DNA of 64,000 nt from Nemertoderma westbladi (taxonomy: Eukaryota > Animalia > Xenacoelomorpha). Below the pieces are notes generated by a model. The model was not told the DNA's origin and searched no databases. It saw nothing but the letters and a program-made list of their open reading frames with translations. Within the stretch, counting starts at the first letter, position 1. Every line of letters starts with the position of its first letter. Below are positions 2,211-48,047 of the stretch, piece after piece. A program made the position numbers and the translations under genes. The DNA lies in assembly GCA_032718475.1 (NCBI GenBank), contig JAUCBJ010000751.1, forward strand, positions 979-64,978, written 5' to 3'.

Positions 2211-2898
2211 TGTAAGAGCGGTTTCTATGCTCTTGTGTATAAAACAATAAGATGATCTATGTGATTGTAATATGTTCAACTATAGTTGGATTTCACCCAG
2301 TTTACACGGTTACGTCCCATAAAGAAGAATAATTTGTTTATTTGATTGGGAATTAGGAGCGTATTTATTATAGAAAATATATAAGATAATAATATACGAT
2401 TATAAGCGGTAAGGGGTAATAAGATAACGGAAACATAAGAACATTAATACATAATAAGAGATCTAATAATATAAACGTAAAATATCGTAAGAGTCAAGAA
2501 TACAAAGTAATAAAGAGTGTTAATAGGGGGAGTTTCCGTTTGGGAAACTGCGGAATGAGATGAACTATAGTGAATGAGTAATGTTGAGCACGGTAAGCTG
2601 TAGAAATACAGTAAAGTAATAATAGGGGTGACAGTGTGGTGGGCCTTGATTGGTTAATGGGTAATAAAGGATTGTAGCGCAGTGGAGATACCTACCTAAT
2701 GTGGCTGAACAGGAGTGAAGGGAAGAATACAGCTGTTTATCTGTATAGGATAAACGGCTGTGAATGGGGGCAGACAATAATGGTCGAATGAGTATGTTGG
2801 AGATGAGATAGATATTGGTTTGCAACAATAAGCTGGGAGAATGGGCGGTAATGTAATGATAATATAATTTTAATGTTTGAGAGCGATCCGCCACTACA
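2211..2898 (-). repeat. 3' LTR of element A
   Basis: Matches 11454-12141; preceded on the minus strand by a polypurine tract. Confidence 0.96.
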
Positions 2899-3576
2899 GT
2901 CCCCCTTAAAAATTTTCAAATTTTTACACGATATCTGGACTTAAAATTGCAAATAATCGAAGGAACATCTTGTCCCACTTAAATAATATTGATCTATGGC
3001 CTTTATATTTTACCTCGGTGGACGAACTGGACATACAAAACAAAGATTACATACAGGACATACATTTAAAAGTATGGGTAAACCATACGAATGACAGATA
3101 AACATAAAGGAAACATATATGACGTACATTTAAAAGTATGGAGTTGCCATACGAGTGAAATAGACGTACAGAAGACAACACATATAACACAGAGGACAAA
3201 CATTTAAAAGTATGGATATACCATACAAAGGAGATAAGAAGCTCCTTGGTATCTAAAGGGTCATTGAAGGTCAAAGATCAACATTATTAATACAATACTT
3301 AAGGAAGGTAATTTGTTCAGTAATGTATTTGACGAAGTTAAGATACGTGTAATATCCAAATAATGTATCGTCAATTTTGTAAAATTAAGTTAAATTGTTT
3401 AGAATATATCTCATCTTACGGACATTATGAAAATAGGAAACGATAAACAATTATTACACAATGATTTAGGATTACAGATTAGGTTGTTAGGAGTGTGGTG
3501 ATAGATTAGTTAGAGTAACTACTATAAGGTGAATAAATTCAAAATACTTATGAATTACACCACTACATTACATTGT

Positions 3577-3935: not shown

Positions 3936-5013
3936 TTACTTATTTATTTCCTCTAAGAGGCATAGTTTATCAAGTGGTCTTTTGTAAACTCCCAAGGAGG
4001 TTTTTACTTCAACTGATCTAATTAACCCCACATCATCAGGGTATACTTGCGTTATACGACCCACACTCCAACTACTGCGTGTTTGACCTTCATCTACAAG
4101 CAATACGACATCGCCTACTGCAAGGTTGTTGCGAACACGTGTCCACTTCTGTCTTGATTGAAGTGTCACTAAGTATTCGCGTACCCAGCGGGTCCAAAAA
4201 TGATTGGCTAGTAACTGAGCCTGGCGCCATTTACGAGTTGAGTATGTATCACTGTCGTAGATGGGACCTGGTGGTAAATTGTAAGCAGGGCGCTGTAATA
4301 GAAGGTGGTTCGGAGTTAATATTTCATCAGCTTTAGGGTCATCGGTACTAAGGCACAAGGGGCGGCTGTTTAGAATGCACTCTACTTCTGCTAATGATGT
4401 CACTAACACGTCATCTGTGACAAGAGAATTTCCAAGGACCTGAAACAGAACTTGTTTGATTGAACGGATCAGCCGTTCATATACACCACCCATATGGGGG
4501 GCGTACGGTGTTATAAATTTCCATGTAATGCCCTTTGGGCGCAGGGCAATATCGATCTGATGTTCCCATAGTTCCAGGTTTTGCCGTAATTCTGAATCGG
4601 CACCTACGAAGTTTCCCCCATTGTCTGAAACTATTTCCTTTGGCGAACCTCTCCGTGCTTTAAAACGGGAGAACACATTGATAAAGGCATCAGCTGATGC
4701 ATCAGCAGCTACATCGAGGTGTACTGCTCTACAGTTAAGGCACGTAAAGATAAAGGCATAACGCTTTATAGAACCTCTCCCGTATTTGACCTTTAGTGGA
4801 CCAAACATATCAACGGCTGAAAACGTAAATGGCGGCTCATATGGGGTCAGTCTAGAGGACGGCAATGGCGCCATAAGCTGATTCACACGTGGAGCCTTAC
4901 ATTGCCGACATTTAAAGCACTTAGGTATTAAAGACTTGCAGAAAGTGATAAGGCCAGGGATCCAATAGGATTCCCTTACCTTGGCAACTACTTGGTTGGG
5001 ACCGGCATGTAAT
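3936..5013 (-). CDS. Integrase part of the element A polyprotein (separated from upstream ORF by a frameshift)
   Basis: LHAG..CFKC zinc-binding motif, AVDMFGP, IVSDNGGNF, GGVYERLI (D,D,E), C-terminal RPLDKLCLLE typical of BEL integrases. Confidence 0.93.
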
Positions 5014-8000
5014 TTAATAGATGTGCCAGTGCCATACTATGACATTTGTAAGTGGGTGTAACTTACTCAAAATTATAGGGTGTTTTGTATCGTAGGATAC
5101 TGGGGCGGAGGTAATGCGGCCACCTACCCGCAATAAACCATCCTGAGTTAGGATTGGGGCTAGATTAGCTAGTGGGCTTGAGCAAGCTACTGGGGATGAA
5201 TGCAGTAACATTTGAATTTCGTTGGGATAGGATTGCCTCTGTGAGAAATAAATTAGACATCGTCCAGCATGGTGACGTTCACTTACCGAGACAAATTTCC
5301 CTTTAAGATTTAAGACCGAATTTGGATTTAAAGAATACTTGCAAAGACGTAAGATCCATGCGAACAGAGTCTGTAATTTATTCCATGACGAATGTTTAGC
5401 TATAAGTGAACCTATAGCATTAAATGCTGTGTTAGAATCAATGTGGACATTAAGAATTATTTCAGTGTCAGGATTGTGGTATGGTGTCTGTTCTTCGACA
5501 ACTATGTCAAACCAGAAGTCTGTCATGGTGATGTCATCGTTATAATCAATATCAGATGATACCAATATATGAGAAGTTAACACATCTGGGTTATTGATTA
5601 GTGTATTAGTGATAGTTTCTGGGCATATGGTTGACACTGTCGTCCATGTTTCCTCAGGCTGAACGAGAAAAGGAGGCCCATGCCACCATTTCTGTGAATT
5701 AATGAGCTTGACTGCTGTAAGCCCACGAGTAATGTCATCTGCAGGGTTTAAATGACCAGGTACATGTTGCCATTGTGAACTGGTTGTACGATCAAGGATA
5801 TACTTAGCGCGGTTGTGAACAAAACATCGAAATTGCTTGACGGTGTTGTTTATGTACCCAAGTACGACAGTAGAGTCTGTCCAAAAATAACATTTAGCGA
5901 TTGGTAAGTCTAGGGATTCTAACACAGTTTCACTTACCTGTGCTGCTAAAACTGCAGCTTGGAGCTCTAATCGGGGAACTGAATGTCCAGAGGCTGTACG
6001 AACTAACTTACCTTTGCTGAAAACGAAAGATGAATTTATTTCATTTTCACTTACAGATCGGATGTACAATACTGTACCGTAGGCCACTTTAGAAGCGTCT
6101 GAGAAAATATGTAGCTGGTAGTTGATTGGACCCGAATGGACGGGTATGTACATCCTAGGGATTTCCAGTTCGCTAAGCATAGGAAGTTGATCTCGCCACT
6201 TCATCCATTGACGTGCTGTATCTGGTGGGAGTGGGGTATCCCAGTCTAATTCCATTGACCACATTTTTGCTATAACTAATCGACCTGCTATGATTAAAGG
6301 CAAGATGAAGTTAATGGGATCGTACAATGAGCTAGTCAAAGAGACGCATCCCCGTTTAGTTAATGGTGTGTTTTTAAGCACATAGGAGAATATGAAGTTA
6401 TTTGAATTTGTGTCCCAGGAAACTCCAAGGGCACGGGTTATAGGAAGATTATCAAAATCTAAGTTAATGAAGGATTTTGCCTTTTCTGAATCGGGAAAGG
6501 CATCTAGGAATTGTCTAGAATTGGAGGCAAATTTTGTGAGGTGAAAGCCACCTAATTTGAGGCAATCTACCATCCCAGAAGCGATGTGAATAGCTTCGGA
6601 GACAGATGCTGCACTTTTGAGGCCATCATCCACATACATGTGGCGATTAATGGCATCAATTACCTCCGGGCTAAAATGACTGGCATTATCAATAGCAGTT
6701 CGTTTGACTGATCCTGATGCCACAAAGGATGAATCGCATGCACCAAATATATGTACTAACATTTGGTAAGTCTCCACTGTGGTAGAGCCATCGGGCTGCC
6801 ACAAAAAGCGAAGACTATCGGCATCGCCTGGTGTGACTCTCACCTGGTGGTACATTTCCTTTATGTCGCAGGTGAAAGCCACAGGATATTGTCGAAAACG
6901 CAAAAGAATTCCAATAAGGCTACTGGTGAGATTAGGGCCTTCTAACAGTTGACTATTGAGGGACATCCCTCGGTATAAGGCAGCAGCATCATTTACGATC
7001 CTTATCTCACCAGGCTTGTTGGGATTCTCAACAAAATGATGGGCGAGGTAATATGTCTGTGGCCCTGGGGTTATCTCACATGGTAGGAGTTTGCGAGCAT
7101 AACCCTTCAAGACATAATCGTCTATTTTTTGTTGATAAAGGGCATGGATATGTGGCTTACGATGTAGCTGACGGATTAAATATGCGAAACGGGATTTTGC
7201 CATATTATAATTATTAATTAATAATGGAGGTGAGTCCCTCCAGAGCATTCCTACCTGATAGTGACCATCCACTAGACGCATTGACTTAGAAAACATTTCT
7301 AATGCTTTTAAGTCATCCATGGATGGTGATAGAAACTCATCGATGAGGGGTGAGGGTTTTGGGTCTGAAGGTGAACTTTCAGCAAAACTCTGAAATTTCA
7401 TCCATTGAGTGACCTGTTTAGAGATGTCGCGGTCTGTGCAAGGGTCATTGACTGTGATGTGATTAAACTGTGTTACTGTACTATTGGGTTCAACTGCTTT
7501 ACAGCTCACAGGACCGATTATGCACCATCCAAATGGTGTCCTAATTGCAGAGGGATTAGGGTTCCCAGCCTTTGGGAATACATGTACATCCCTAGCTAGG
7601 GCCTCAGGATGGTTACCACCAACCAGAATTGTGATTGATGGGATATCAAGATTAGGGCAGCATGTCACATATGGCAATATGTGATCTAAGTGCTGGAGCG
7701 TTTTAGGACACAGTTGTGTTACGTCATATGAGTAATCCCTTTTGAAATCGGGGACTACAAATACTTGAGGCATGTTGATGACAAAATTGGGTTTAATTTC
7801 TGGCTGTCCTTTGATAGGTGAGATACTACATGATATTTCCCCTAGAGAAACAGACATATTTGATTGGAAGACAGTACTGACATTAAGAGAAGTTGTTTCG
7901 GTAATGATACCAAGAGTATCGGTTACATTTTTGTCAACAAATGTCGCAGTAGACCCATCATCAAGAAGTGCATATGTAGTGAGTGATTTATTGGCAATGC

Positions 8001-11000
8001 ATATGGTTACTGGGACTACTGATAACCATACGGGTTGTACTTTGGCAATTGATAAGTGTACAGACATGGAATTGGTTGAACTTTGTGCGCTGATGTTGCC
8101 ACCTTTAGATTTTGGTCGGTCGGTGTGGCTACCAGAGCTCTCACTACTCGCATGGTCCTTGACACTCTGTTTCGATTTATTGGAATCGGAAGCCTTTGAA
8201 AATACATACGCACCATGTAATAAGGTATTGTGTTTTCCTTTGCAATCGGGAGCAAAACACACATCAACAGATTTGCAGTCCGGAATAAGATGTGAATTTG
8301 CAAAACATCGAAAGCACAACTGGTATGAACGTACGCAGTTTAACCGTTCTTGTGGTGTAAGATTTAGAAAGGTTTTGCATTGACTGATTTTATGCCCATG
8401 TTGTTTACAGCATGGGCAGGGGTGGGATTTTAACACTTTGGGATTATTACCGACCCCTGAAGTAACTGGGATATGTACTTCAGTGGCCAAGGTTGTAACC
8501 TTTGGGCGAGGCTCAAATGAGCCACGGTCAACTATACTATAAACAGGGTCATTTATAATATCGGCTTCATTGTCAAGGAAGTCCGCAAGCTCATTGAGAG
8601 TGGGTTCCCTTTGAGAACGAGCACGAATACCGTGAGCAACTCGACGCCATCTTGCAAGATGCTCAGTTGGTAGGTTAGAGGCAACTTGTTTGAGGTTCGA
8701 GGTAGCATTCATTTCATGACTGTTGCTTAAGTGCTGAAGAATGGTAACCTTACTTCTTACCTTATCAGCATAGTCACGAAGTTTTTCCCTTTTTATTCCA
8801 AAAGATCCATTTAAATCTACAGAAGAGACGAGATCTCTTAGTGTAGCTTCAATGATTACACTAGGGTGACCATAACGTTTATGCAAGGTCTCCCAAGCCT
8901 TAGTGTAACCATTTGAAAGTCCTTCATAAGCCTCAACTAGCTCATGAGGTTTGCCAGACGTATATTGTAAAAGGTACTGCAATTTTTCCACATCAGAAAA
9001 ATCACGTAAGTCGATATGGGCCTTAAAGGTAGCCACAAAAGATATATACTTAGCTGAATCACCACTAAATTTTGTAGGTTCAGGGCGTGGCAAGGATAGC
9101 TTAGTATTTAATTTGCCTAAGGCATCTAGGGTGTGAGAGAGACCAGAATCTTGTAAGGCAAAATCTGATGGTGCACCATTGTGTGGGTTGGATAATGGGG
9201 ACCCTCCAAAATAGGCACCACTTTTTACTATAGTGGGGTCACCTGCAATGGAAATACAAGATCTATCATTAGGGTTCATGGATGTAATACTCGATAGTGC
9301 AGAAATAGGAGCATTTCTATCGAAATATACTGGACCATTGTGTCCCCCCATGGCAAATTGTACATGATTTGAATTAGGAGCATTTACTGCAGACTGACCA
9401 ACAGAGATTGAACTAGCAGTTACAGATGCTACAGGATTACATAAAAATCCAGGAGTCTCACTGTATTGATACTGTAGGCCAGTGGTACTATATGGGAAAT
9501 ATTGTCCCTCGTCATATAAGTTTTGTCCCCCCATGGTAAATGATGGGACGTGAGATATATTATGGGTATTGTATCGCGCAGAAGAGGCAAACTTGGGGCG
9601 CCTCTCTTGTGCAGATTGACCCGGAACATTGATGGGACATGATGGGACACTTTGACCTATGGGGTGGGAAGGGTGGGGGAATTGTCCCCCTATGGGGTAT
9701 GTTGAAACATATATAGATGGACATGTAAGGCTATTTACATCAAGAGATGTAAATGCCACAGGCTCCTCTTGACTAGATTGTTCCTGGCTGGTAGTAAGAT
9801 AGGATGGGACATATTGTCCTCCAGAAGTATAGGATGAATAAATGCATTGTCCGGCCGAGGAACTTCTAGGATATCTCTGAGAATACTGACTTAAGGAAGA
9901 TGCAGTATTAAAAGGCGATGTTGGGGGTATAAAGAGACCAGTTGTACAAAAATTACCTAGTGGGATAATTTCAGAAACTCTACTATTAATTAGCGCACTA
10001 GTGGGTCTTATAGGAGACGTAAGAGAAAAAATTGGAAGTTGAGATGACACTACTGACGTTGTTTCTACAGTGACAGGGTAGGAATGAGATTGACTAGACT
10101 GCAGATTATTTTGTGCTGATTCATAGGAATCTGAGGCACTCACATTAACAGGTAGGCCCGTGGTTGCTATGGCAACAGGGTCGACTGGAGACTCTGATTG
10201 GATCCTTGTATTAACAGTCACATTATTGTTAAGATTACTTTCAGTTTGTACACCAATTGGTACGTCATACGTGGGAGATCTTTTTGGTGATTGTAAAAGC
10301 GCAGAAGCTACATAATCTGCTTCTGCTTCTCCAAATTCAGGTGATTTCAACTCTAAAGCTTCTTCAAGTGCTGCAAGTGCAAGAGCATCGCGTAGGCCAC
10401 GTTCCTTTGCCAAGCGAGAAATTTCTTTCTGTTGCCGCTCTGATTTTTGTAATAGCCGCTCTGATTTTTGTAATATCAATGTGTCAGCCTGATCTGCCTG
10501 AGCAGCTGCTCCTGACTGCTCGAGCTGTAGCAGGAGTAATTTTCGCTTGACTTTGGCACGATGAACTCGAACTGATGCGCTCGTCGAGGCTCGAGAATGT
10601 GCTGTAGAACCAGAGTGAGTTGAAATTGTTCGATTACGTTTGAGCTCGCCAACTTGCAATTGTTCATGAGATGATACATACTGTGGAACATCTGAAGACA
10701 CAACTACAATAGGTATGGCGTTACTCCGACATGTCTGGGTCTGAGTCACGGTCTGCTCATTGCTATTAATATATTCGCGAATGTCATTGAGTTTAGATTC
10801 AAGGTCTGACAGTACAGTTACTGATTGTGCAGCTAGCTCACGTGACACATCAGAAAAACCAAATCTTTCGAAATCGAAAGTTGATTTTTCATAGTGACTA
10901 CACAAAGATTTGTATACATTAATACAAGAATTAAATATAGAATCGATATTAGTAGGGTCGAATGTAGCAGACCTTTGAATGGTAAACTCATTGAAACGTC

Positions 11001-11232
11001 GTGTAAAATGAGCCTTATAACCAGCAATCGTTCTCTTTACGTGAGTTAGATTAGGTACTGAACTCTCACTAGACATTTCTACGGTAGGATTTACAACAGA
11101 TGCAACAGGAGTTGGTGAGATAACGTTTTCAATACGTGTAGATGTAAGAGGTGACTTACCAGACTGTGTGGATACATCAGATTCCGAAGCTGAATGAATT
11201 TCGTCGTCCATTTGAACACCTTTGTTGTCCAT
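5014..11232 (-). CDS. Gag-protease-RT-RNase H polyprotein of element A
   Basis: Open frame of about 2070 codons from the first ATG; knuckles CPCCKQHGHKISQC, CFRCFANSHLIPDC, CFAPDCKGKHNTLLH; protease ALLDDGS; RT DIKEMYHQV and YVDD; RNase H FSDASKVAYG, PRLELQAA, FWTDS, NPADDITRG. Confidence 0.95.
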   Translation of the reverse strand: MDNKGVQMDDEIHSASESDVSTQSGKSPLTSTRIENVISPTPVASVVNPTVEMSSESSVPNLTHVKRTIAGYKAHFTRRFNEFTIQRSATFDPTNIDSIFNSCINVYKSLCSHYEKSTFDFERFGFSDVSRELAAQSVTVLSDLESKLNDIREYINSNEQTVTQTQTCRSNAIPIVVVSSDVPQYVSSHEQLQVGELKRNRTISTHSGSTAHSRASTSASVRVHRAKVKRKLLLLQLEQSGAAAQADQADTLILQKSERLLQKSERQQKEISRLAKERGLRDALALAALEEALELKSPEFGEAEADYVASALLQSPKRSPTYDVPIGVQTESNLNNNVTVNTRIQSESPVDPVAIATTGLPVNVSASDSYESAQNNLQSSQSHSYPVTVETTSVVSSQLPIFSLTSPIRPTSALINSRVSEIIPLGNFCTTGLFIPPTSPFNTASSLSQYSQRYPRSSSAGQCIYSSYTSGGQYVPSYLTTSQEQSSQEEPVAFTSLDVNSLTCPSIYVSTYPIGGQFPHPSHPIGQSVPSCPINVPGQSAQERRPKFASSARYNTHNISHVPSFTMGGQNLYDEGQYFPYSTTGLQYQYSETPGFLCNPVASVTASSISVGQSAVNAPNSNHVQFAMGGHNGPVYFDRNAPISALSSITSMNPNDRSCISIAGDPTIVKSGAYFGGSPLSNPHNGAPSDFALQDSGLSHTLDALGKLNTKLSLPRPEPTKFSGDSAKYISFVATFKAHIDLRDFSDVEKLQYLLQYTSGKPHELVEAYEGLSNGYTKAWETLHKRYGHPSVIIEATLRDLVSSVDLNGSFGIKREKLRDYADKVRSKVTILQHLSNSHEMNATSNLKQVASNLPTEHLARWRRVAHGIRARSQREPTLNELADFLDNEADIINDPVYSIVDRGSFEPRPKVTTLATEVHIPVTSGVGNNPKVLKSHPCPCCKQHGHKISQCKTFLNLTPQERLNCVRSYQLCFRCFANSHLIPDCKSVDVCFAPDCKGKHNTLLHGAYVFSKASDSNKSKQSVKDHASSESSGSHTDRPKSKGGNISAQSSTNSMSVHLSIAKVQPVWLSVVPVTICIANKSLTTYALLDDGSTATFVDKNVTDTLGIITETTSLNVSTVFQSNMSVSLGEISCSISPIKGQPEIKPNFVINMPQVFVVPDFKRDYSYDVTQLCPKTLQHLDHILPYVTCCPNLDIPSITILVGGNHPEALARDVHVFPKAGNPNPSAIRTPFGWCIIGPVSCKAVEPNSTVTQFNHITVNDPCTDRDISKQVTQWMKFQSFAESSPSDPKPSPLIDEFLSPSMDDLKALEMFSKSMRLVDGHYQVGMLWRDSPPLLINNYNMAKSRFAYLIRQLHRKPHIHALYQQKIDDYVLKGYARKLLPCEITPGPQTYYLAHHFVENPNKPGEIRIVNDAAALYRGMSLNSQLLEGPNLTSSLIGILLRFRQYPVAFTCDIKEMYHQVRVTPGDADSLRFLWQPDGSTTVETYQMLVHIFGACDSSFVASGSVKRTAIDNASHFSPEVIDAINRHMYVDDGLKSAASVSEAIHIASGMVDCLKLGGFHLTKFASNSRQFLDAFPDSEKAKSFINLDFDNLPITRALGVSWDTNSNNFIFSYVLKNTPLTKRGCVSLTSSLYDPINFILPLIIAGRLVIAKMWSMELDWDTPLPPDTARQWMKWRDQLPMLSELEIPRMYIPVHSGPINYQLHIFSDASKVAYGTVLYIRSVSENEINSSFVFSKGKLVRTASGHSVPRLELQAAVLAAQVSETVLESLDLPIAKCYFWTDSTVVLGYINNTVKQFRCFVHNRAKYILDRTTSSQWQHVPGHLNPADDITRGLTAVKLINSQKWWHGPPFLVQPEETWTTVSTICPETITNTLINNPDVLTSHILVSSDIDYNDDITMTDFWFDIVVEEQTPYHNPDTEIILNVHIDSNTAFNAIGSLIAKHSSWNKLQTLFAWILRLCKYSLNPNSVLNLKGKFVSVSERHHAGRCLIYFSQRQSYPNEIQMLLHSSPVACSSPLANLAPILTQDGLLRVGGRITSAPVSYDTKHPIILSKLHPLTNVIVWHWHIY

Positions 11233-11443
11233 ATTTGTATCCAAATTAAATAAAGGTGTCGTCTTCAAAATTAAAGTCTAGCTACGGTAGTTAGAATCGC
11301 CTAAATAGACTGTAATACATACCAACTTGGCTACAAAAGCTTAGTAACGTGGTATAGTAAAGAATTACTAAGAAATAAAATAATTAATATACAATTTAAT
11401 TTATTTATTTATAATTGTAAATTTCATAGAGTTTTATTTGAGT

Positions 11444-11453
11444 TTTCCCAAAC
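11444..11453 (-). promoter_or_regulatory. Putative self-priming PBS of element A (GTTTGGGAAA)
   Basis: First 10 nt after the 5' LTR; exact inverted copy at 11781-11790 inside the LTR. Confidence 0.7.
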
Positions 11454-12141
11454 TGTAAGAGCGGTTTCTATGCTCTTGTGTATAAAACAATAAGATGATC
11501 TATGTGATTGTAATATGTTCAACTATAGTTGGATTTCACCCAGTTTACACGGTTACGTCCCATAAAGAAGAATAATTTGTTTATTTGATTGGGAATTAGG
11601 AGCGTATTTATTATAGAAAATATATAAGATAATAATATACGATTATAAGCGGTAAGGGGTAATAAGATAACGGAAACATAAGAACATTAATACATAATAA
11701 GAGATCTAATAATATAAACGTAAAATATCGTAAGAGTCAAGAATACAAAGTAATAAAGAGTGTTAATAGGGGGAGTTTCCGTTTGGGAAACTGCGGAATG
11801 AGATGAACTATAGTGAATGAGTAATGTTGAGCACGGTAAGCTGTAGAAATACAGTAAAGTAATAATAGGGGTGACAGTGTGGTGGGCCTTAATTGGTTAA
11901 TGGGTAATAAAGGATTGTAGCGCAGTGGAGATACCTACCTAATGTGGCTGAACAGGAGTGAAGGGAAGAATACAGCTGTTTATCTGTATAGGATAAACGG
12001 CTGTGAATGGGGGCAGACAATAATGGTCGAATGAGTATGTTGGAGATGAGATAGATATTGGTTTGCAACAATAAGCTGGGAGAATGGGCGGTAATGTAAT
12101 GATAATATAATTTTAATGTTTGAGAGCGATCCGCCACTACA
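11454..12141 (-). repeat. 5' LTR of element A
   Basis: 688 bp, TG..CA; AATAAA on minus strand at 11607-11612 and 11580-11585. Confidence 0.96.
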
Positions 12142-15100
12142 CAGATAACTGTTTATAAACTAACCTTACTGGCAGAGAACTGTTTATAAACTAACCTTAC
12201 TGGCAGATAACTGTTTATAAACTAACTTTACTGGCAGAGAACTGTTTAAAACTAACCTTACTGACAGAGAACTGTTTATAAACTAACCTTACTGGCAGAT
12301 AACTGTTTATGAACTAACCTTACTGGCAGAGAACTGTTTATAAACTAACCTTACTGGCACATAACTGTTTATAAACTAACCTTACTGGCACATAACTGTT
12401 TATAAACTAACCTTATTGGCAGAGAACTGTTTATAAACTAACCTTACTGGCATATAACTGTTTATAAACTAACCCTACTGGCAGAGACCTGTTTATAAAC
12501 TAACCTTACTGACAGAGAACTGTTTATAAACTAACCTTACTGGCATATAACTGTTTATAAACTAACCCTACTTGCAGATAACTGTTTATAAACTAACCTT
12601 ACTGACAGAGAACTGTTTATAAACTAACCTTACTGGCAGATAACTGTTTATAAACTAACCTTACTGACAGAGAACTGTTTATAAACTAACCTTACTGGCA
12701 GAAAACTGTTTATAAACTAACCTTATTGGCAGATAACTGTTTATAAACTAACCTTACTGGCAGAGAACTGTTTATAAACTAACCTTACTGACAGATAACT
12801 GTTTATAAACTAACCTTACTGGAAAAGAGAACTGTTTATAAACTAACCTTACTGGCAGAAAACTGTTTATAAACTAACCTTACTGGTAGAGAACTGTTTA
12901 TAAACTAACTTACTGACAGAGAACTGTTTATAAACTAACCTTACTGGCAGAGAACTGTTTATAAACTAACCTTACTGGCAGAGACCTGAGTATAAACTAA
13001 CCTTACTGGCAGAGAACTGTTTATAAACTAACCTTACTGGCAGAGAACTGTTTATAAACTAACCTTACTGGCAGAGAACTGTTTACAAACTAACCTTACT
13101 GACAGATAACTGTTTATAAACTAACCTTACTGGCAGAGAATTGTTTATAAACTAACCTTACTGGCAGAGAACTGTGTATAAACTAACCTTACTGGCATAG
13201 AACTGTTTATAAACTAACCCTACTGGCAGAGAACTGTTTATAAACTAACTTTACTGGCAGAGAACTGTTTATAAACTAACCTTACTGACAGATAACTGTT
13301 TATAAACTAACCTTACTGGCAGAGAACTGTTTATAAACTAACCTTACTGACAGAGAACTGTTTATAAACTAACCTTACTGGGAGAGAACTGTTTATAAAC
13401 TAACCTTACTGGCAGAGAACTGTTTATAAACTAACCTTACTGACAGATAACTGTTTATAAACTAACCTTACTGACAGAGAACTGTTTATAAACTAACCTT
13501 ACTGGGAGAGAACTGTTTATAAACTAACCTTACTGGCAGAGAACTGTTTATAAACTAACCTTACTGGCTGAGAACTGTTTATAAACTAACCTTACTGGCA
13601 GAGAACTGTTTATAAACTAACCTTACTGGCAGAGACCTGAGTATAAACTAACCTTACTGGCAGAGAACTGTTTATAAACTAACCTTACTGGCAGAGAACT
13701 GTTTATAAACTAACCTTACTGGCAGAGAACTGTTTACAAACTAACCTTACTGACAGATAACTGTTTATAAACTAACCTTACTGGCAGAGAACTGTTTATA
13801 AACTAACCTTACTGGCAGAGAACTGTGTATAAACTAACCTTACTGGCATAGAACTGTTTATAAACTAACCTTACTGGCAGAGAACTGTTTACAAACTAAC
13901 CTTACTGACAGATAACTGTTTATAAACTAACCTTACTGGCAGAGAACTGTTTATAAACTAACCTTACTGGCAGAGAACTGTGTATAAACTAACCTTACTG
14001 GCAGAGAACTGTTTATAAACTAACCTTACTGGCAGAGAACTGTTTATAAACTAACTTTACTGGCAGAGAACTGTTTATAAACTAACCTTACTGACAGATA
14101 ACTGTTTATAAACTAACCTTACTGGCAGAGAACTGTTTATAAACTAACCTTACTGACAGAGAACTGTTTATAAACTAACCTTACTGGGAGAGAACTGTTT
14201 ATAAACTAACCTTACTGGCAGAGAACTGTTTATAAACTAACCTTACTGACAGATAACTGTTTATAAACTAACCTTACTGACAGAGAACTGTTTATAAACT
14301 AAACTTACTGGGAGAGAACTGTTTATAAACTAACCTTACTGGCAGAGAACTGTTTATAAACTAACCTTACTGGCTGAGAACTGTTTATAAACTAACCTTA
14401 CTGACAGATAACTGTTTATAAACTAACCTTACTGGCAGAGAACTGTTTATAAACTAACCTTACAGACAGAGAACTGTTTATAAACTAACCTTACTGACAG
14501 AGAACTGTTTATAAACTAACCTTACTGACTGAGAACTGTTTATAAACGAACCTTACTGGCAGATAACTGTTTATAAACTAACCTTACTGGCAGAGAACTG
14601 TTTATAAACTAACCTTACTGGCAGAGAACTGTTTATAAACTAACTTTACTGGCAGAGAACTGTTTAAAACTAACCTTACTGACAGAGAACTGTTTATAAA
14701 CTAACCTTACTGACAGAGAACTGTTTATAAACTAACCTTACTGACTGAGAACTGTTTATAAACGAACCTTACTGGCAGATAACTGTTTATAAACTAACCT
14801 TACTGGCAGAGAACTGTTTATAAACTAACCTTACTGGCAGAGAACTGTTTATAAACTAACTTTACTGGCAGAGAACTGTTTAAAACTAACCTTACTGACA
14901 GAGAACTGTTTATAAACTAACCTTACTGGAAGATAACTGTTTATGAACTAACCTTACTGGCAGAGAACTGTTTATAAACTAACCTTACTGGCACATAACT
15001 GTTTATAAACTAACCTTACTGGCACATAACTGTTTATAAACTAACCTTATTGGCAGAGAACTGTTTATAAACTAACCTTACTGGCATATAACTGTTTATA

Positions 15101-15797
15101 AACTAACCCTACTGGCAGAGACCTGTTTATAAACTAACCTTACTGACAGAGAACTGTTTATAAACTAACCTTACTGACAGAGAACTGTTTATAAACTAAC
15201 CTTACTGGCATATAACTGTTTATAAACTAACCCTACTTGCAGATAACTGTTTATAAACTAACCTTACTGACAGAGAACTGTTTATAAACTAACCTTACTG
15301 GCAGATAACTGTTTATAAACTAACCTTACTGACAGAGAACTGTTTATAAACTAACCTTACTGGCAGAAAACTGTTTATAAACTAACCTTATTGGCAGATA
15401 ACTGTTTATAAACTAACCTTACTGGCAGAGAACTGTTTATAAACTAACCTTACTGACAGATAACTGTTTATAAACTAACCTTACTGGAAAAGAGAACTGT
15501 TTATAAACTAACCTTACTGGCAGAAAACTGTTTATAAACTAACCTTACTGGCAGAGAACTGTTTATAAACTAACTTACTGACAGAGAACTGTTTATAAAC
15601 TAACCTTACTGGCAGAGAACTGTTTATAAACTAACCTTACTGGCAGAGACCTGAGTATAAACTAACCTTACTGACAGAGAACTGTTTATAAACTAACCTT
15701 ACTGGGAGAGAACTGTTTATAAACTAACCTTACTGGCAGAGAACTGTTTATAAACTAACCTTACTGACAGATAACTGTTTATAAACTAACCTTACTG
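12142..15797. repeat. 31-bp satellite array, block 2
   Basis: Same monomer and orientation. Confidence 0.98.
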
Positions 15798-18232
15798 ATG
15801 GACATGTAAGGCTATTTACATCAAGAGATGTAAATGCCACAGGCTCCTCTTGACTAGATTGTTCCCGGCTGGTAGTAAGATAGGATGGGACATATTGTCC
15901 TCCAGAAGTATAGGATGAATAAATGCATTGTCCGGCCGAGGAACTTCTAGGATATCTCTGAGAATACTGACTTAAGGAAGATGCAGTATTAAAAGGCGAT
16001 GTTGGGGGTATAAAGAGACCAGTTGTACAAAAATTACCTAGTGGGATAATTTCAGAAACTCTACTATTAATTAGCGCACTAGTGGGTCTTATAGGAGACG
16101 TAAGAGAAAAAATTGGAAGTTGAGATGACACTACTGACGTTGTTTCTACAGTGACAGGGTAGGAATGAGATTGACTAGACTGCAGATTATTTTGTGCTGA
16201 TTCATAGGAATCTGAGGCACTCACATTAACAGGTAGGCCCGTGGTTGCTATGGCAACAGGGTCGACTGGAGGGCGACTGGAGACTCTGATTGGATCCTTG
16301 TATTAACAGTCACATTATTGTTAAGATTACTTTCAGTTTGTACACCAATTGGTACGTCATACGTGGGAGATCTTTTTGGTGATTGTAATAGCGCAGAAGC
16401 TACATAATCTGCTTCTGCTTCTCCAAATTCAGGTGATTTCAACTCTAAAGCTTCTTCAAGTGCTGCAAGTGCAAGAGCATCGCGTAGGCCACGTTCCTTT
16501 GCCAAGCGAGAAATTTCTTTCTGTTGCCGCTCTGATTTTTGTAATAGCCGCTCTGATTTTTGTAATATCAATGTGTCAGCCTGATCTGCCTGAGCAGCTG
16601 CTCCTGACTGCTCGAGCTGTAGCAGGAGTAATTTTCGCTTGACTTTGGCACGATGAACTCGAACTGATGCGCTCGTCGAGGCTCGAGAATGTGCTGTAGA
16701 ACCAGAGTGAGTTGAAATTGTTCGATTACGTTTGAGCTCGCCAACTTGCAATTGTTCATGAGATGATACATACTGTGGAACATCTGAAGACACAACTACA
16801 ATAGGTATGGCGTTACTCCGACATGTCTGGGTCTGAGTCACGGTCTGCTCATTGCTATTAATATATTCGCGAATGTCATTGAGTTTAGATTCAAGGTCTG
16901 ACAGTACAGTTACTGATTGTGCAGCTAGCTCACGTGACACATCAGAAAAACCAAATCTTTCGAAATCGAAAGTTGATTTTTCATAGTGACTACACAAAGA
17001 TTTGTATACATTAATACAAGAATTAAATATAGAATCGATATTAGTAGGGTCGAATGTAGCAGACCTTTGAATGGTAAACTCATTGAAACGTCGTGTAAAA
17101 TGATCCTTATAACCAGCAATCGTTCTCTTTACGTGAGTTAGATTAGGTACTGAACTCTCACTAGACATTTCTACGGTAGGATTTACAACAGATGCAACAG
17201 GAGTTGGTGAGATAACGTTTTCAATACGTGTAGATGTAAGAGGTGACTTACCAGACTGTGTGGATACATCAGATTCCGAAGCTGAATGAATTTCGTCGTC
17301 CATTTGAACACCTTTGTTGTCCATATTTGTATCCAAATTAAATAAAGGTGTCGTCTTCAAAATTAAAGTCTAGCTACGGTAGTTAGAATCGCCTAAATAG
17401 ACTGTAATACATACCAACTTGGCTACAAAAGCTTAGTAACGTGGTATAGTAAAGAATTACTAAGAAATAAAATAATTAATATACAATTTAATTTATTTAT
17501 TTATAATTGTAAATTTCATAGAGTTTTATTTGAGTTTTCCCAAACTGTAAGAGCGGTTTCTATGCTCTTGTGTATAAAACAATAAGATGATCTATGTGAT
17601 TGTAATATGTTCAACTATAGTTGGATTTCACCCAGTTTACACGGTTACGTCCCATAAAGAAGAATAATTTGTTTATTTGATTGGGAATTAGGAGCGTATT
17701 TATTATAGAAAATATATAAGATAATAATATACGATTATAAGCGGTAAGGGGTAATAAGATAACGGAAACATAAGAACATTAATACATAATAAGAGATCTA
17801 ATAATATAAACGTAAAATATCGTAAGAGTCAAGAATACAAAGTAATAAAGAGTGTTAATAGGGGGAGTTTCCGTTTGGGAAACTGCGGAATGAGATGAAC
17901 TATAGTGAATGAGTAATGTTGAGCACGGTAAGCTGTAGAAATACAGTAAAGTAATAATAGGGGTGACAGTGTGGTGGGCCTTGATTGGTTAATGGGTATA
18001 AAGGATTGTAGCGCAGTGGAGATACCTACCTAATGTGGCTGAACAGGAGTGAAGGGAAGAATACAGCTGTTTATCTGTATAGGATAAACGGCTGTGAATG
18101 GGGGCAGACAATAATGGTCGAATGAGTATGTTGGAGATGAGATAGATATTGGTTTGCAACAATAAGCTGGGAGAATGGGCGGTAATGTAATGATAATATA
18201 ATTTTAATGTTTGAGAGCGATCCGCCACTACA
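15797..18232 (-). mobile_element. Truncated copy of element A (5' LTR 17546-18232, leader and gag N-terminus)
   Basis: Near-identical to about 9716-12141; 11-bp tandem duplication at about 16261-16282 frameshifts gag; broken end joins satellite with a GA microhomology. Confidence 0.95.
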
Positions 18233-25776: not shown

Positions 25777-26013
25777 TGTGGTGATAATATATGGCTCGCC
25801 CCATGGACACCCTGGGACGAGGGGGGAGAGACCTACCGGTGTTGGACAGTCTGTATGTCGGTGTTAGTCAGTCAGTACCACCAGTTTATCTAGGCTACTT
25901 ACTGCATGCCCTGACCGGTCCACAGAGGACCCTATTATATATGATCACAGTATCTGCTACAGACAAAGGTTTTGTTCGTCTGCTGCCTCGCAGCAATAGT
26001 AGATACGCCCACA

Positions 26014-26031
26014 TGGCGCAGTGTGTAGGAT
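26014..26031 (+). promoter_or_regulatory. tRNA primer-binding site, probably tRNA-Ser
   Basis: TGGCGCAGTGTGTAGGAT directly after the LTR; resembles the complement of animal tRNA-Ser 3' ends (recalled, not searched). Confidence 0.7.
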
Positions 26032-26042
26032 AACTTGGGCCC

Positions 26043-28661
26043 ATGCCGCCTAAATCCAAAGGGAAGATCACGTCCCCGCCCACGGCGGACAGCAGCGACG
26101 GCGATGAAACTCTAGAAGCCCGAGGCGGCAGGCGCGCCCCTATCCGAATGGACGACCTCGCGCGAATCCTCGCCCAACAGCAGACTGCTATGGCTCAGCT
26201 GCTGGCGCAACAGCAGGAGGACGCCAACCGTCGCCAGGAGGCTGCGGATGACCGCCTACTTCAACAACAGGCGGCCGCAGACGACCGCATCGCTAAACTC
26301 CTCGCGGCTTTACAACCCGGCATGGCGGCGGCCGCCACACCGGAACTACCGACGACCCAACCCACGTACGCGGGGGCCGTCACGAACCCGGTTCCCCGAC
26401 GCCGGGTAATCGACATCTCGACGATGGAGAAGATCGACGTGGACGTCGAGTTCTCCATGTTCCGCCGGTGGAGACAGGCTTGGCGGGTCCACGCCCACCG
26501 ACAACAGGTCGCTACGTTCCCGCGAGCAGAGCAGGTTTATGCTCTCGTTGCTGCCCTCGGTAGCGGCCTACAGGAGACCATCCGCGTCACCCTACACGTG
26601 GACATCGACGCGGACGATACAACCACAGAGACGGTCCTCGATGCACTCCAGGGCCACCTCCGCGCCAAGAGGAGTATCGCGATCGACGCGATCAAGTTCC
26701 ACGAGCGCCGGCAAGGCGCGACCGAGGGATTCGATTCCTTCCGGGTGGCCCTGGAGGATCTCGCAGACACTGCGGAGCTCTGTGGGAACTGCCGCGACCG
26801 GCAGATCGTTACCCAGATCCTAGTGGGTCTCCGATGTTCAGAGACCCGGACGGAACTCCTCAAGGTTCTTCCTCAACTGACCCTCGAGGACTGCGTGAGG
26901 ATCGCGCAGAGCGTGGAAGCCAGCGAATGGAACGACTCGATCCTCGCGAGCGGGAAACCAGTAAACCTCATCACCCGACCCTGCGTGGCGGAACCCTAGC
27001 GGCCGCAGTTGCGGCAACTGCGGCCGGGAACCCCATGAGGCGGGCTCGGAATGCCCCGCCAAGGGGGTCAAGTGCCACGGCTGTGGCAGGACGGGGCATA
27101 TCAAGCGGATGTGCCGGTCCCGATCCGCCACCAAGAAGAGGGTGTCCACAGTGTACCACTGCCAGAGTATTAGCAGCGTTGCCAACAATCAGGAAACAGC
27201 CTGCAAACTCTCTTATATCGCGGTGGGCCTGACGGACTCCGGGATCGGGAACCTCAAGGGGACGGTTCGTCACTCCCTCCCGGACAGTGGTGCGGCCGCT
27301 AACATCTTTAACCAGGGACTGTTTCTCCGGTTCGGAGGGCGACTCGACGACCTCCTCCCGCTTCGAGATGACGACAAGTTCGAGGCGGCCAACCGACTCC
27401 CCATGGCGGCCGTGGGGAGGTACCCAGTGGAGATCAACTACTGCGGGACGACAGCGACCACTGAGCTGGTCATCTCTCCTGAGTCCGACGGACTGATCCT
27501 CTCGAAGAAGTCCATCCAGGACCTGGACATCCTCCCGCGCACCTTCCCGGCGCCCCTACACAGCCGCGGAACCGTCGCTTCTGTTGCTCCGTCCCCGGCG
27601 ATCCGCTCCCGGGACAATCTCCTCCGCGAGTTCAGCGACGTGTTTGACAACGACTCCGCGCCTCTTCCAATGATGCATGGCCCGCCCATGCGTATCCAGC
27701 TGAAGGACGGGGCCAAGCCGTTCCACGTCAACGGCGCAAGACCTGTCCCGTTCGCGATGCGGGATGAGGTGAAAGAACTCCTCGACAAGCTAGAGCGACG
27801 GGAAGTCATCACCCGGGTCGAGGAACCTACGGAATGGGCCCATCCGATGACGGTGGCGCCTAAACCCAACGGAGGACTGCGACTCTGCGTGGACCTCCGC
27901 CACCTAAACTCGCAGGTCCGACGCCCCTATTACCCGACGCCGAATCCACGGACCGCAGTCGCCGGAGTCTCCACGACTGCAAAGATTTTCTCCGTGTTCG
28001 ACGCAGCCAGTGGCTACTGGCAGGTTCCCCTCAATGAGGAATCCCAACTCCTCACCACCTTCGCGACTCCCTGGGGCCGGTACTGTCACACTCGTAGTGT
28101 GATGGGGCTGATCTCGTCCGGCGACGAGTTTAACCGTCGAGGCGACGACGCCATCCAGGGACTTCCTAACCTCATCAAGGTTGTAGACGATGTACTCCTC
28201 TACAACGATACAATGGAGGAACACATGGAGAACATCGCGAGGTTTATGGAGCGGTGCCGGACCTACGGGATCATGTTACACCCGGGGAAGGTTCAGTTTG
28301 CCCAGACCGAGGTTCGGTTCGCTGGGTACCTCGTCGGCGCCTCCGGGATAAAAGCCGACCCTGAGAAACTGAAGGCGATCGCCGGCTTCCCCTGCCCTGG
28401 GAACATCACCGATCTACGGAGCTTCCTCGGACTGGTGGAGCAACTCGCTCCGTTCTCAGCAGACATCGCTGCCGCGATGTCCCCGCTACGTCCCCTCCTA
28501 AGCACGAAGGCGACCTTCATCTGGACGGTGGACCACAAACGGGCCTTCGAGGCCACCAAGCTGGCTCTGACGTCACCGCCGGCCCTCGTCCCGTTCGACA
28601 CGACCCGGGAGACCCGCCTAGTGACAGACGTGTCCCGGCTGAAGGGCCTCGGCTACGCCCT
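26043..28661 (+). pseudogene. Mag-like gag-pol with one frameshift near 26960-27000, truncated
   Basis: Gag (RDRQIVTQILVGL); CGNCGREPHEAGSEC and CHGCGRTGHIKRMC knuckles lie in the pol frame; protease LPDSGA; RT LRLCVDLR, DAASGYWQ, VVDD; RNase H start LVTDVS. Confidence 0.9.
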
Positions 28662-31600
28662 CTTACTGGCACATAACTGTTTATAAACTAACCTTACTGG
28701 CACATAACTGTTTATAAACTAACCTTATTGGCAGAGAACTGTTTATAAACTAACCTTACTGGCATATAACTGTTTATAAACTAACCCTACTGGCAGAGAA
28801 CTGTTTATAAACTAACCTTACTGACAGAGAACTGTTTATAAACTAACCTTACTGACAGAGAACTGTTTATAAACTAACCTTACTGGCATATAACTGTTTA
28901 TAAACTAACCCTACTTGCAGAGAACTGTTTATAAACTAACCTTACTGACAGAGAACTGTTTATAAACTAACCTTACTGGCAGATAACTGTTTATAAACTA
29001 ACCTTACTAACAGAGAACAGTTTATAAACTAACCTTACTGGCACATAACTGTTTATAAACTAACGTTATTGGCAGATAACTGTTTATAAACTAACCTTAC
29101 TGGCAGAGAACTGTTTATAAACTAACCTTACTGACAGATAACTGTTTATAAACTAACCTTACTGGCAGAGAGCTGTTTATAAACTAACCTTACTGACAGA
29201 GAACTGTTTATAAACTAACCTTACTGACAAAGAACTGTTTATAAACTAACCTTACTGGCATATAACTGTTTATAAACTAACCTTATTGGCAGAGAACTGT
29301 TTATAAACTAACCTTACTGGCATATAACTGTTTATAAACTAACCCTACTGGCAGAGAACTGTTTATAAACTAACCTTACTGGCAGAGAACTGTTTATAAA
29401 CTAACCTTACTGACAGAGAACTGTTTATAAACTAACCTTACTGACAGATAACTGTTTATAAACTAACCTTACTGGCAGAGAACTGTTTATAAACTAACCT
29501 TACTGGCACATAACTGTTTATAAACTAAACTTACTGGCACATAACTGTTTATAAACTAACCTTATTGGCAGAGAACTGTTTATAAACTAACCTTACTGGC
29601 ATATAACTGTTTATAAACTAACCCTACTGGCAGAGAACTGTTTATAAACTAACCTTACTGACAGAGAACTGTTTATAAACTAACCTTACTGGCAGATAAC
29701 TGTTTATAAACTAACCTTACTGGCAGAGAACTGTTTATAAACTAACCTTACTGGCACATAACTGTTTATAAACTAACCTTATTGGCAGAGAACTGTTTAT
29801 AAACTAACCTTACTGGCAGAGAACTGTTTATAAACTAACCTTACTGACAGATAACTGTTTATAAACTAACCTTACTGGCAGAGAACTGTTTATAAACTAA
29901 CCTTACTGACAGAGAACTGTTTATAAACTAACCTTACTGGCAGAGAACTGTTTATAAACGAACCTTACTAGGAGAGAACTGTTTATAAACTAACCTTACT
30001 GGCAGAGAACTGTTTATAAACTAACCCTACTGGCAGATAACTGTTTATAAACTAAACTTACTGACAGATAACTGTTTATATACTAACCTTACTGGCAGAT
30101 AACTGTTTATAAACTAACCTTACTGACAGAGAACTGTTTATAAACCAACCTTACTGGCAGATAACTGTTTATAAACTAACCTTACTGGCAGAGAACTGTT
30201 TATAAACTAACCTTACTGACAGAGAACTGTTTATAAACGAACCTTACTGGGAGAGAACTGTTTATAAACTAACCTTACTGGCAGAGAACTGTTTATAAAC
30301 TAACCTTACTGGCAGAGAACTGTTTATAAACTAACCTTACTGGCAGAGAACTGTTTATAAACTAACCTTACTGACAGATAACTGTTTATAAACTAACCTT
30401 ACTGGCAGAGAACTGTTTATAAACTAACCTTACTGGCACATAACTGTTTATAAACTAAACTTACTGGCACATAACTGTTTATAAACTAACCTTATTGGCA
30501 GAGAACTGTTTATAAACTAACCTTACTGGCATATAACTGTTTATAAACTAACCCTACTGGCAGAGAACTGTTTATAAACTAACCTTACTGACAGAGAACT
30601 GTTTATAAACTAACCTTACTGGCAGATAACTGTTTATAAACTAACCTTACTGGCAGAGAACTGTTTATAAACTAACCTTACTGGCACATAACTGTTTATA
30701 AACTAACCTTATTGGCAGAGAACTGTTTATAAACTAACCTTACTGGCAGAGAACTGTTTATAAACTAACCTTACTGACAGATAACTGTTTATAAACTAAC
30801 CTTACTGGCAGAGAACTGTTTATAAACTAACCTTACTGACAGAGAACTGTTTATAAACTAACCTTACTGGCAGAGAACTGTTTATAAACGAACCTTACTA
30901 GGAGAGAACTGTTTATAAACTAACCTTACTGGCAGAGAACTGTTTATAAACTAACCCTACTGGCAGATAACTGTTTATAAACTAACCTTACTGACAGATA
31001 ACTGTTTATATACTAACCTTACTGGCAGAGAACTGTTTATAAACTAACCTTACTGACAGAGAACTGTTTATAAACTAACCTTACTGGCAGATAACTGTTT
31101 ATAAACTAACCTTACTGGCAGATAACTGTTTATAAACTAACCTTACTGACAGAGAACTGTTTATAAACGAACCTTATTGGGAGAGAACTGTTTATAAACT
31201 AACCTTACTGGCAGAGAACTGTTTATAAACTAACCTTACTGGCAGAGAACTGTTTATAAACTAACCTTACTGGCAGAGAACTGTTTATAAACTAACCTTA
31301 CTGACAGAGAACTGTTTATAAACTAACCTTACTGACAGAGAACTGTTTATAAACTAACCTTACTGACAGAGAACTGTTCATAAACTAACCTTACTGACAG
31401 AGAACTGTTTATAAACTAACCTTACTGGCAGAGAACTGTTTATAAACTAACCTTACTGACAGATGACTGTTTATATACTAACCTTACTGGCAGAGAACTG
31501 TTTATAAACTAACCTTACTGACAGAGAACTGTTTATAAACTACCCTTACTGGCAGAAAACTGTTTATAAACTAACCTTACTGGGAGAGAACTGTTTATAA

Positions 31601-38083: not shown

Positions 38084-39260
38084 TGTAAAAGCTTTTGCGG
38101 GATTAGCTAGTCATTTTTTCCCCGCAAAGTACTCTGTAGATGTTTTAACGGACATAAAAGCCGTTTCCTTACTGTACCAGTATTTTATTGGACATAAAAA
38201 GCTATTTTTCTGTATGTGTACTTTGGCGGACATAACTAGCAATCTTATGCCGCAATACGCGATAATACTCTCTACACAGTGTAGTTCAGGTTACGACATC
38301 TATCAGCTGATTTGGTGTACTCGTGGCATTTTTCTTTGTTCAGGCCCACTCTGTGCAATCACTCGACCAATCAGCGTGATTTTCAGTTTATTACACAGAG
38401 GCCTCCGGGAAATCGCGCAATGCATTATGGTTTATGTTTACCTTTTTTCCTAGGCCCAGAAGACCGGCTTTGGAATTTCTGTGTTTTCAGGCTTTAGCCC
38501 AACATTAGTAGGCTTAATTATAGAACGTATATCTGTTATCACGCAACATAACTCAAACCAATGATTACCTTTTAACAATCAAAACACCGCTTTTATACTG
38601 CTATTTACTGTCGGTTATTCATTATATTAGTTGATGGAATATTATATTTGGAATATCGATAAATAATTACCAACCCTCAATCTTCTTGATATACTGAAGG
38701 TAAGAGAGACAGGTTACATATAACGATTGCGACTTACATTAGAGTGGTTTTGAAGTGAATCTAATGCTATTTCATAGGCACTACAAGTATCAGTCGTTGT
38801 TCTCTTTATATGTGACTAAAATTAGTGAAGGTCGGCAGATCGGTGTGCAGTATTGTGCAGTAGTGTGTATGATTGAGACTGATAACAAAGCATCTCCTAA
38901 AGAATGCGCCATATACGTGAATCTATAGCCATCCCATTGCGTCTAGTTTAAGTCATAGCTCTGCTTACATATTTAGAGCGCCACGTCCTAAAGGAACTGT
39001 TAATATTTCCCGAAAGTGAACAATATTTGTCAGAGATTATATATTACGATCAGTCGAATAATACAGTAGGCTTACACCGCAATAAGATTAAGCTTCCGAA
39101 TCCAGTCTCCCGGGTATATCCAGCGGGTGAATGGTTGCGCATAGACTGGCTTCGGCTAATGTAGTGTATCCAATACTCGTCATAGGCTAAAGTCGATTTA
39201 TTATCTAGAAGACATCCTAATTTGGCAGGTTAAACTGCTAAAGGTCTGAAAGCGCGAACA
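38084..39260 (+). repeat. 5' LTR of element B
   Basis: Direct repeat of 49044-50220. Confidence 0.96.
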
Positions 39261-39270
39261 ATAACAGATA
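39261..39270 (+). promoter_or_regulatory. Putative self-priming PBS of element B (ATAACAGATA)
   Basis: First 10 nt after the 5' LTR; exact reverse complement TATCTGTTAT at 38530-38539; no TGG-type PBS. Confidence 0.7.
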
Positions 39271-39857
39271 ATTTGTAGGCTGGACTGTTGTCTGACCGTT
39301 GTTAGGTCTGAACGGATTGCAGTGCATCTAGAGTGTATTTCCGATAAAGTGCCGGTTAGGAAAGTAGGGGCAGCCAGAGCTGTAAGGTAAATCCCCCAGA
39401 AAGAATAAGTCATACTACTAGGTTAGAACGCATACTAACTAACCATTTCGGAGTCTGCATGTCCTGTAGTTTATTTAGCCTTGATAGTGGTCTGCCAGCG
39501 TTTGGTCTGTACTTTGTTTGTGTAGTCTGTACAGGTACCGTAATATTTCTTATTCAGATAATTTATAGGCTAGATTGTTGTCTGGCTGTTGTTAAGTCTG
39601 AAGAGATTGTAGTGTGTGTAGAGTGTCTGTCCGATAAAGTACTAGTTAGGAACGTAGGGGCAGCTAGAGCTGTAAGGTAAACCCCCCCCCCCCCCCCCGA
39701 AAGAATAAGTCGTACTACTCGGTTAGAATGCATACTAACTAACCATTTCGGAATCTGCACATACTGTAATTTATTTGGGCTTGATAGTAGTCTGCCAGCG
39801 TTTGGTTTGTATTTTGTTTGAGTAGTTGTACGGGTAGCGTAATATTTATTATTCAGA
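39265..39857 (+). repeat. Diverged tandem duplication (unit about 290 bp) in the leader of element B
   Basis: CAGATAATTT(G/A)TAGGCT at 39265 and 39555; second unit has an expanded C run. Confidence 0.88.
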
Positions 39858-47600: not shown

Positions 47601-48047
47601 ATGACTCAGTTGATAGAAGATGATCTTGGTATCAGGGAGAAATATACTCTACCGTTGCAGGCGTTTGTTGATAGCTTGATACGCAGTGACGCTAGTCCAA
47701 CTACTACGGAGGACGATGGTCGTTATATCGAACCGCCAATGTCCCAGGAGCAACTTACGCGTGAATTGGACTATCGAAAATTCACTGCTCGCTATACGCA
47801 TTGTAATGGTACGTATATGGACTTCTTAACTACTGGCCATCCTATCGATTTATACGATACGGACGATATCGACACCGAAAGGGAAATGGTCCTATTTAAA
47901 TATCGTACCCAGCGGAGTCGGAACGATAAATTGAGAATCGAATGCGAAAATTATATTCGAAATCGACTCGAAAGAGAAGACGTTAAAGAACCGGATAAAC
48001 GCGGTAACTCCAACGTATATTTGGAATTATTGAGAGAAACATTGTAA
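47601..48047 (+). CDS. Unknown ORF in the 3' accessory region of element B (probably a fragment)
   Basis: ATG-initiated 148-aa charged ORF behind a structured GC-rich leader; no family recognised. Confidence 0.45.
   Translation: MTQLIEDDLGIREKYTLPLQAFVDSLIRSDASPTTTEDDGRYIEPPMSQEQLTRELDYRKFTARYTHCNGTYMDFLTTGHPIDLYDTDDIDTEREMVLFKYRTQRSRNDKLRIECENYIRNRLEREDVKEPDKRGNSNVYLELLRETL

Follow-up and report, generated by a model that had tools for sequence, protein, structure and literature searches.

A BEL/Pao retrotransposon with a primer-binding site complementary to its own LTR

Retroelements of the 64-kb window

The window, the whole 64-kb stretch of DNA that was analysed, is animal-type DNA and carries from position 1 to 32202 a 31-bp satellite, in which element A is embedded in minus-strand orientation. 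Judged by its sequence, element A is a recently inserted BEL/Pao LTR retrotransposon whose coding frame is broken once. Its 688-bp 5' LTR (11454-12141, minus strand) runs from TG to CA and shows one difference from the 3' LTR (2211-2898, minus strand), an identity of 99.85%, and the element is flanked by a 5-bp target-site duplication, ATCTG, inside the 31-bp satellite (12142-12146, with the other copy at 2206-2210). A frame of 2087 amino acids (5014-11277, minus strand, first methionine at 11232) encodes Gag, protease, reverse transcriptase (RT) and RNase H, with DUF1759, zinc knuckles, YVDD and Peptidase_A17, and the integrase part (Integrase_H2C2, rve, DUF5641) follows in a different frame (3936-5036, minus strand), the polyprotein being interrupted at about 5036-5014, ahead of the integrase. 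An LTR within 0.2-1.2 kb, the TG...CA ends, the target-site duplication and a polypurine tract (2899-2907, minus strand) are the LTR features of BEL/Pao elements, and the order Gag, protease, RT, RNase H, integrase with Pao-type domains is that of the group; DUF1759, Peptidase_A17 and DUF5641 exceed the Pfam cut-off. The RT groups with BEL/Pao: its best matches have that Pfam set too and are 41-46% identical to it, apart from one at 32%. Membership of the Tf1/sushi group, which has a Ty3/gypsy chromovirus Pol, was rejected on the Pao-type domains and the absence of a chromodomain match. Two AATAAA hexamers (11607-11612 and 11580-11585, minus strand) are candidate poly(A) signals, and an Rfam search of 11200-12200 returned zero matches.

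The satellite also hosts a second, 3'-truncated copy of A (15797-18232, minus strand) that comprises the LTR and primer-binding site (PBS) together with the beginning of gag. It is 99.3% identical to the first, with five single-position differences and one 11-nt indel across 2.4 kb, and stops abruptly within the satellite at 15797. A GC-rich 2.9-kb insert within the same satellite, at 25778-28673, with RVT_1 and RT_RNaseH_2 matches (26965-28686), is a fragment of another RT element. Further along, on the plus strand, lies element B (38084-50220, 12.1 kb), BEL/Pao-derived but unrelated to A, which has a gag-protease region without RT or integrase between a 1177-bp 5' LTR (38084-39260) and a 3' LTR (49044-50220) that are 98.9% identical, and a target-site duplication of TGGTT. 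Extra frames of B at 41145-43196 carry an alanine/glutamate-rich repeat, its leader contains a duplication (39265-39558 and 39555-39857) that begins within the PBS, and B itself is inserted into an RT-bearing element (RVT_1 match at 50202-51119). Inverted-repeat pairs in 52357-54450, 56137-60265 and 60444-60576 (49 nt at 98%, 54-117 nt at 74-80%, and a 59-bp hairpin), together with a 22-bp palindromic tandem at 52725-52856, are probably DNA-transposon remains.

Complementarity between the primer-binding site and the LTR

What might prime reverse transcription in element A? The PBS, GTTTGGGAAAACT (11441-11453, minus strand), starts with GT and directly abuts the LTR end at 11454. Inside the LTR, the minus strand reads AG (11792-11791), TTTCCCAAAC (11790-11781) and GGAAACT (11780-11774), and the stretch 11781-11792 is the predicted self-primer: ten nucleotides pair perfectly with the PBS from position +1 after the LTR, so that the complementarity reaches precisely to the edge of the LTR; AG then pairs with CT (2 bp) past one bulged A. 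The original prediction had described these strings, the 12-bp pairing with its single bulge and two AATAAA signals about 180-210 nt downstream, and each was located where it had been placed, the signals at 11612 and 11585 being 180 and 207 nt from 11792. It had also pointed out that both sites are retained in the second copy; they are indeed present there (17536-17545 and 17873-17882), but this is uninformative, the two copies being nearly identical. A third copy of the primer lies in the 3' LTR of A at 2538-2549. The primer-PBS duplex is predicted at -13.3 kcal/mol, compared with -6.7 kcal/mol for a local hairpin over the primer. Over the PBS itself, the weak local hairpin at 11436-11453 on the minus strand (-3.9 kcal/mol; 64 of 300 shuffles) is within chance, and a crude duplex test detected no U5-IR-type stem beside the PBS (31 of 200 shuffles).

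When the LTR was shuffled with its dinucleotides preserved, a complement of ten nucleotides at offset +1 arose in 35 of 20000 trials, and in 125 of 20000 when any start from +1 to +6 was allowed; elsewhere in the first 80 nt of the leader, the tail of the 10-nt match excepted, no start gives more than 7 nt. Since the comparison was made post hoc and the more permissive count is 125, chance was weighed as the source of the complement. It is very improbable, because identical geometry is found in element B and in relatives of A, far above cross-pair controls. In B, the predicted self-primer (38530-38539, plus strand; 66 of 20000 shuffles) and the PBS (39261-39270, plus strand, from +1 after the LTR) are perfect complements of ten nucleotides, and the PBS of A against the LTR of B, or the PBS of B against the LTR of A, gives a match of only 5 nt each. 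The available text of PMC6317226 sets the criterion for a self-primer at a complement of at least 10 bp starting 0-5 bp after the LTR, and the complements of both A and B have this length and position.

Relatives were drawn from the RT alignment as 80 loci at 36-45% identity: 11 have LTR ends fixed by LTR-pair homology, 36 were tested by rule, and the remainder were without upstream DNA or were family duplicates. The fixed rule admits an offset of 0-5 and a complement that is either contiguous or runs across a GTRAG..YAG intron of 50-500 nt; it was substituted, with cross-pair controls, for an initial junction-blind search in which any GT..AG was allowed and which was too noisy at 10-11 nt. 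Of the eleven loci with fixed LTR ends, nine reach a complement of 10-13 nt (six across an intron, three contiguous), compared with 2 of 150 cross-pairs. The two misses are L023, which has a tRNA-type site, and L039, in which the shared LTR stretch is without a CA end. With junctions left free, at least 11 nt are reached in 19 of the 36 relatives and in 40 of 1234 cross-pairs; the first figure is not a blind rate, as 16 of the 36 were picked after the earlier search had shown a match, and it includes L068 (18 nt) and L027 (12 nt), which we do not accept as primers. The 14-nt match of L058 is at another site than its 11-nt junction match. Among six loci fetched later, three have both ends. In every one of these the complement spans an LTR intron and reaches 11 nt, although the intron of L082, at 1022 nt, is beyond the 500-nt rule; L084-L086 are too short. 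Between the sisters L081 and L083, two letters of the exon end (CAC to TAA) and the two matching letters of the PBS (GTG to TTA) change together. Self-complementarity thus recurs with other letters in an independent element of the same window and in distant relatives, which backs the reading of the LTR stretch as a self-primer.

The relatives are partly related rather than fully independent, six of them sharing one PBS core, and their tree (FastTree, midpoint root, no named reference) is weakly supported at its deep nodes and was not drawn on for the order of events. The nearest relative with DNA context is only about 45% identical to A in RT, so that the covariation seen lies outside A's own lineage. 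Two viral-contig scans found no relative. The paired site starts with GT or AT in all 28 families compared; a U5-IR stem occurs in 1 of 28 families and a hairpin over the PBS in 2 of 28, so that neither is a general feature. Loci L081-L083, with both LTR ends, come from a bacterial genome bin, in which they most likely represent animal host DNA, and L081 also lies in a tandem repeat, of about 73 bp. In L011, L037 and L073 the LTR ends are apparently TA rather than CA.

Could a host tRNA, or a tRNA fragment, instead prime at TGGGAAAACTC, the LTR complement serving only to fold or regulate the leader in packaging, dimer formation or translation control? The family is described in the ICTV profile as primed by tRNA-Arg or tRNA-Gly (PMC8742986), and TGG is present at +4 of the PBS of A. 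Moreover, tRNA-type sites, a T-run followed by TGGTCC, exist in the relatives L023, L024 and L026, which lie on one tree branch, so that by their sequences both priming types occur among the BEL/Pao relatives compared. The site of A differs from these TGGTCC sites. The tRNA-type relatives, however, lack an LTR complement (4-7 nt only), whereas the complement in A includes the GTT upstream of TGG and stops exactly at the LTR edge. In B and in all 26 self-complementary relatives, TGG is absent from the first 8 nt of the PBS. Four U in a row would also be unusual in the acceptor strand of a cytosolic tRNA. A tRNA gene search of the 64-kb window found none, and GAGTTTTCCCA is absent from the element strand throughout the window. 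We give priming by a host tRNA a small chance. The PBS pairs with the element's own LTR in A, as it does in many distant relatives, and it is therefore likely that A starts reverse transcription from its own RNA, with a 10-12 nt LTR stretch as primer, and not from a host tRNA.

RNA start, candidate intron and hairpin

Where the RNA of A would begin is a separate matter. The original prediction placed the start near 11792, at GCAGTT, on the grounds that this resembles an initiator. The initiator motif is TCAKTY in the accessible text of PMC3601003, and GCAGTT has one mismatch to it. With up to one mismatch allowed, the 688-nt LTR contains 14 such sites, three of them perfect (LTR positions 110, 324 and 343), and because they are so common in the LTR the resemblance carries no weight. 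A strict TATA box, TATAWAWR, is absent upstream of GCAGTT in the LTR of A. In seven of seven relatives with such a box, it implies a start further upstream, about 40-250 nt from the donor or primer, and an initiator-like site is found at the primer start in just one of nine other families of the contiguous type. At the CAG|TT position, moreover, 18 of 26 relatives have a splice acceptor, and half of these 18 acceptors pass as initiators, six perfectly. Folding favours the original placement. For unspliced RNA starting at 11792-11800 the primer-PBS helix has a predicted probability of 0.81-1.00 with five of seven 3' ends, being lost with the two longer ones, whereas in none of the 28 runs that start at 11830 or further upstream does it exceed 0.26; in these longer unspliced 5' ends a C-rich stretch at 11877-11889 captures the PBS. 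Transcription from 11792-11800 may be entertained, though doubtfully. The odds that the CAG at 11793-11791 serves, like its counterparts in the relatives, as acceptor of an LTR intron fall somewhat short of even, and tentatively the CAG may be no acceptor and the start may lie elsewhere than 11792-11800.

A candidate LTR intron of 148 nt (11791-11938, minus strand) runs between the best donor of the LTR, TAG|GTAGGT, and the CAG that immediately precedes the 10-mer. If transcription began upstream of 11939 and this intron were removed, the primer would consist of the start of exon 2 plus the final AG of exon 1; such a spliced leader is a sub-case of self-priming and, for A, a tentative one. In its favour, 18 of 26 relatives and three of three later ones have YAG immediately ahead of the primer's exon-2 part. 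By matrices from other hosts, the donor 148 nt upstream scores 5.5, within the 3.7-11.9 of the relatives, and the CAG before the 10-mer, at 2.6, outscores every other acceptor upstream of the primer, although a competing AG 17 nt upstream of it scores 2.3; all these values for A are modest. Splicing would remove the C-rich stretch, and in spliced RNA from LTR position 183 the helix reaches a predicted probability of 0.86 at 20 °C and 0.99 at 10 °C; at 37 °C it falls to only 0.21, and in RNA from LTR position 57 it is at most 0.01. Against the spliced leader, the donor of A is not GTRAG, the exon-2 part of the primer is 10 nt in A and 4-8 nt in the relatives, and no base pair would be gained in A, compared with three to seven perfect pairs contributed by exon 1 in the relatives. 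Splicing as a means of lengthening the pairing in A was rejected, the listed donors yielding at most one extra pair.

The primer of A also lies in a local hairpin of 7 bp with a 5-nt loop (11774-11792, minus strand; -6.7 kcal/mol) that is confined to the family of A. With the primer fixed, a stem of at least 7 bp arose in 16 of 20000 shuffles, a post hoc count with one side only shuffled, and a stem of at least 6 bp over the primer is absent from all 27 other families. The original prediction saw in it a possible switch between hairpin and priming states. In the full model built on this, the RNA starts at 11792, the primer consists of its first 12 nt, like that of Tf1, and the hairpin keeps priming off under regulation until it is opened by way of the CAAAC loop. 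Several observations are in keeping with this: a 12-nt primer with A first fits the 11 nt of Tf1 in the accessible Tf1 literature, the helix dominates only for the unspliced 5' ends at 11792-11800, the hairpin is real and non-random in A, and the hairpin and helix states swap with small changes of context. The hairpin has a predicted share of 0.00-0.18 with five 3' ends and of 0.74-0.78 with two, a balance within model error, and a prediction that varies between 0.00 and 0.78 according to where the folded stretch is bounded falls short of showing a regulated switch. Given also the 14 initiator-like sites, the missing TATA box, the upstream starts implied in seven of seven relatives, and the lack of any such hairpin in all 27 other families, we regard the scheme as a whole as unlikely. 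PBS-like decoys in R/U5 are found in only 4 of 28 families (Fisher p 0.12) and lend it no generality; they are same-sense copies of 8-9 nt of the PBS start inside the LTR, 36-67 nt before its end, in L005, L034, L050 and L059. In the context of the 3' LTR, where the primer and hairpin are repeated at 2531-2549, one fold gives the hairpin a probability of 0.95, so that the primer repeated there might be masked by it. Most probably the hairpin is peculiar to the family of A, where it would at most tune priming or mask the primer copy of the 3' LTR, rather than being a required switch.

The putative self-primer and known priming systems

By analogy with Tf1, the leader RNA of A would fold back so that the primer pairs with the PBS, the RNA would be cut after C11781, probably by the element's own RNase H, RT would extend the new 3' end into U5, and the stretch from 11780 to the poly(A) site would serve as R in strand transfer. 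Only the 3' cut is needed in such a scheme, and the primer need therefore not be the 5' end of the RNA. For the intron of the spliced relatives to be inherited, the 3' LTR of their RNA would have to retain it. A broader reading, in which BEL/Pao self-priming is widespread in marine animals, mostly with a splice-completed primer and an internal cut, and A has added a hairpin that hides the primer until the PBS invades the loop, is speculative and has little probability; that this hairpin hides above all the 3' LTR copy of the primer belongs to the same joint reading and is equally improbable.

If self-priming is borne out, it would place a self-primer in a third LTR superfamily, often across a splice junction, which would tie reverse transcription to host splicing. 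It would free BEL/Pao elements from the tRNA supply and could account for those without a tRNA match. The initiator resemblance and the hairpin contribute little to this unless backed by RNA data.

The C. elegans element Cer7, also of the BEL/Pao group, encodes its own tRNA-like primer. Element A would likewise supply its own primer; unlike Cer7, it would do so in a window with neither a tRNA gene nor GAGTTTTCCCA on the element strand. The literature searched, which included few subscription papers or Repbase reports, contained no report of BEL/Pao self-priming or of a splice-built primer; nothing on either was found in the available text of PMC5443660, PMC6934838, PMC8220671 and PMC11042837, and by term searches primers go unmentioned in that of PMC3118150 and PMC12440569. 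In the 2021 ICTV profile, the Belpaoviridae are tRNA-primed and their replication is poorly understood (PMC8742986). Element A shares with this family (Semotivirus) the order protease, RT, RNase H, integrase, an LTR of 0.2-1.2 kb, a length below 10 kb, the polypurine tract and the family-specific Pfam domains. Where the profile gives an 18-nt PBS for tRNA-Arg or tRNA-Gly, however, A and B have a self-complementary site of 10-12 nt.

Self-priming is reported or predicted for Tf1/sushi elements, Tcn1 and the plant TAR copia elements in the accessible part of PMC6317226. The self-primers of A and B are predicted by the same kind of evidence as those of the TAR lineage of Ty1/copia (Houba, Osr-1) and of the Tcn1 chromoviruses, which belong to other superfamilies and hosts than A and for which a splice-built primer is not mentioned there. 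The closest parallel in layout is with Tf1 and Tf2 of Schizosaccharomyces pombe and Tj1 of S. japonicus, in the Tf1/sushi group, in which, as in A, the PBS adjoins the LTR and is complementary to the element's own LTR transcript, over about 11 nt; in Tf1 the PBS pairs with the 11 initial bases, and the cut made by RNase H separates base 11 from base 12 (PMC7175516 and PMC4600332, as far as their text was available). Tf1 needs a U5-IR stem, of a kind not detected in A. Unlike the Tf1/sushi elements, which are Ty3/gypsy, A is a BEL/Pao element, and many of its relatives assemble the primer across an intron.
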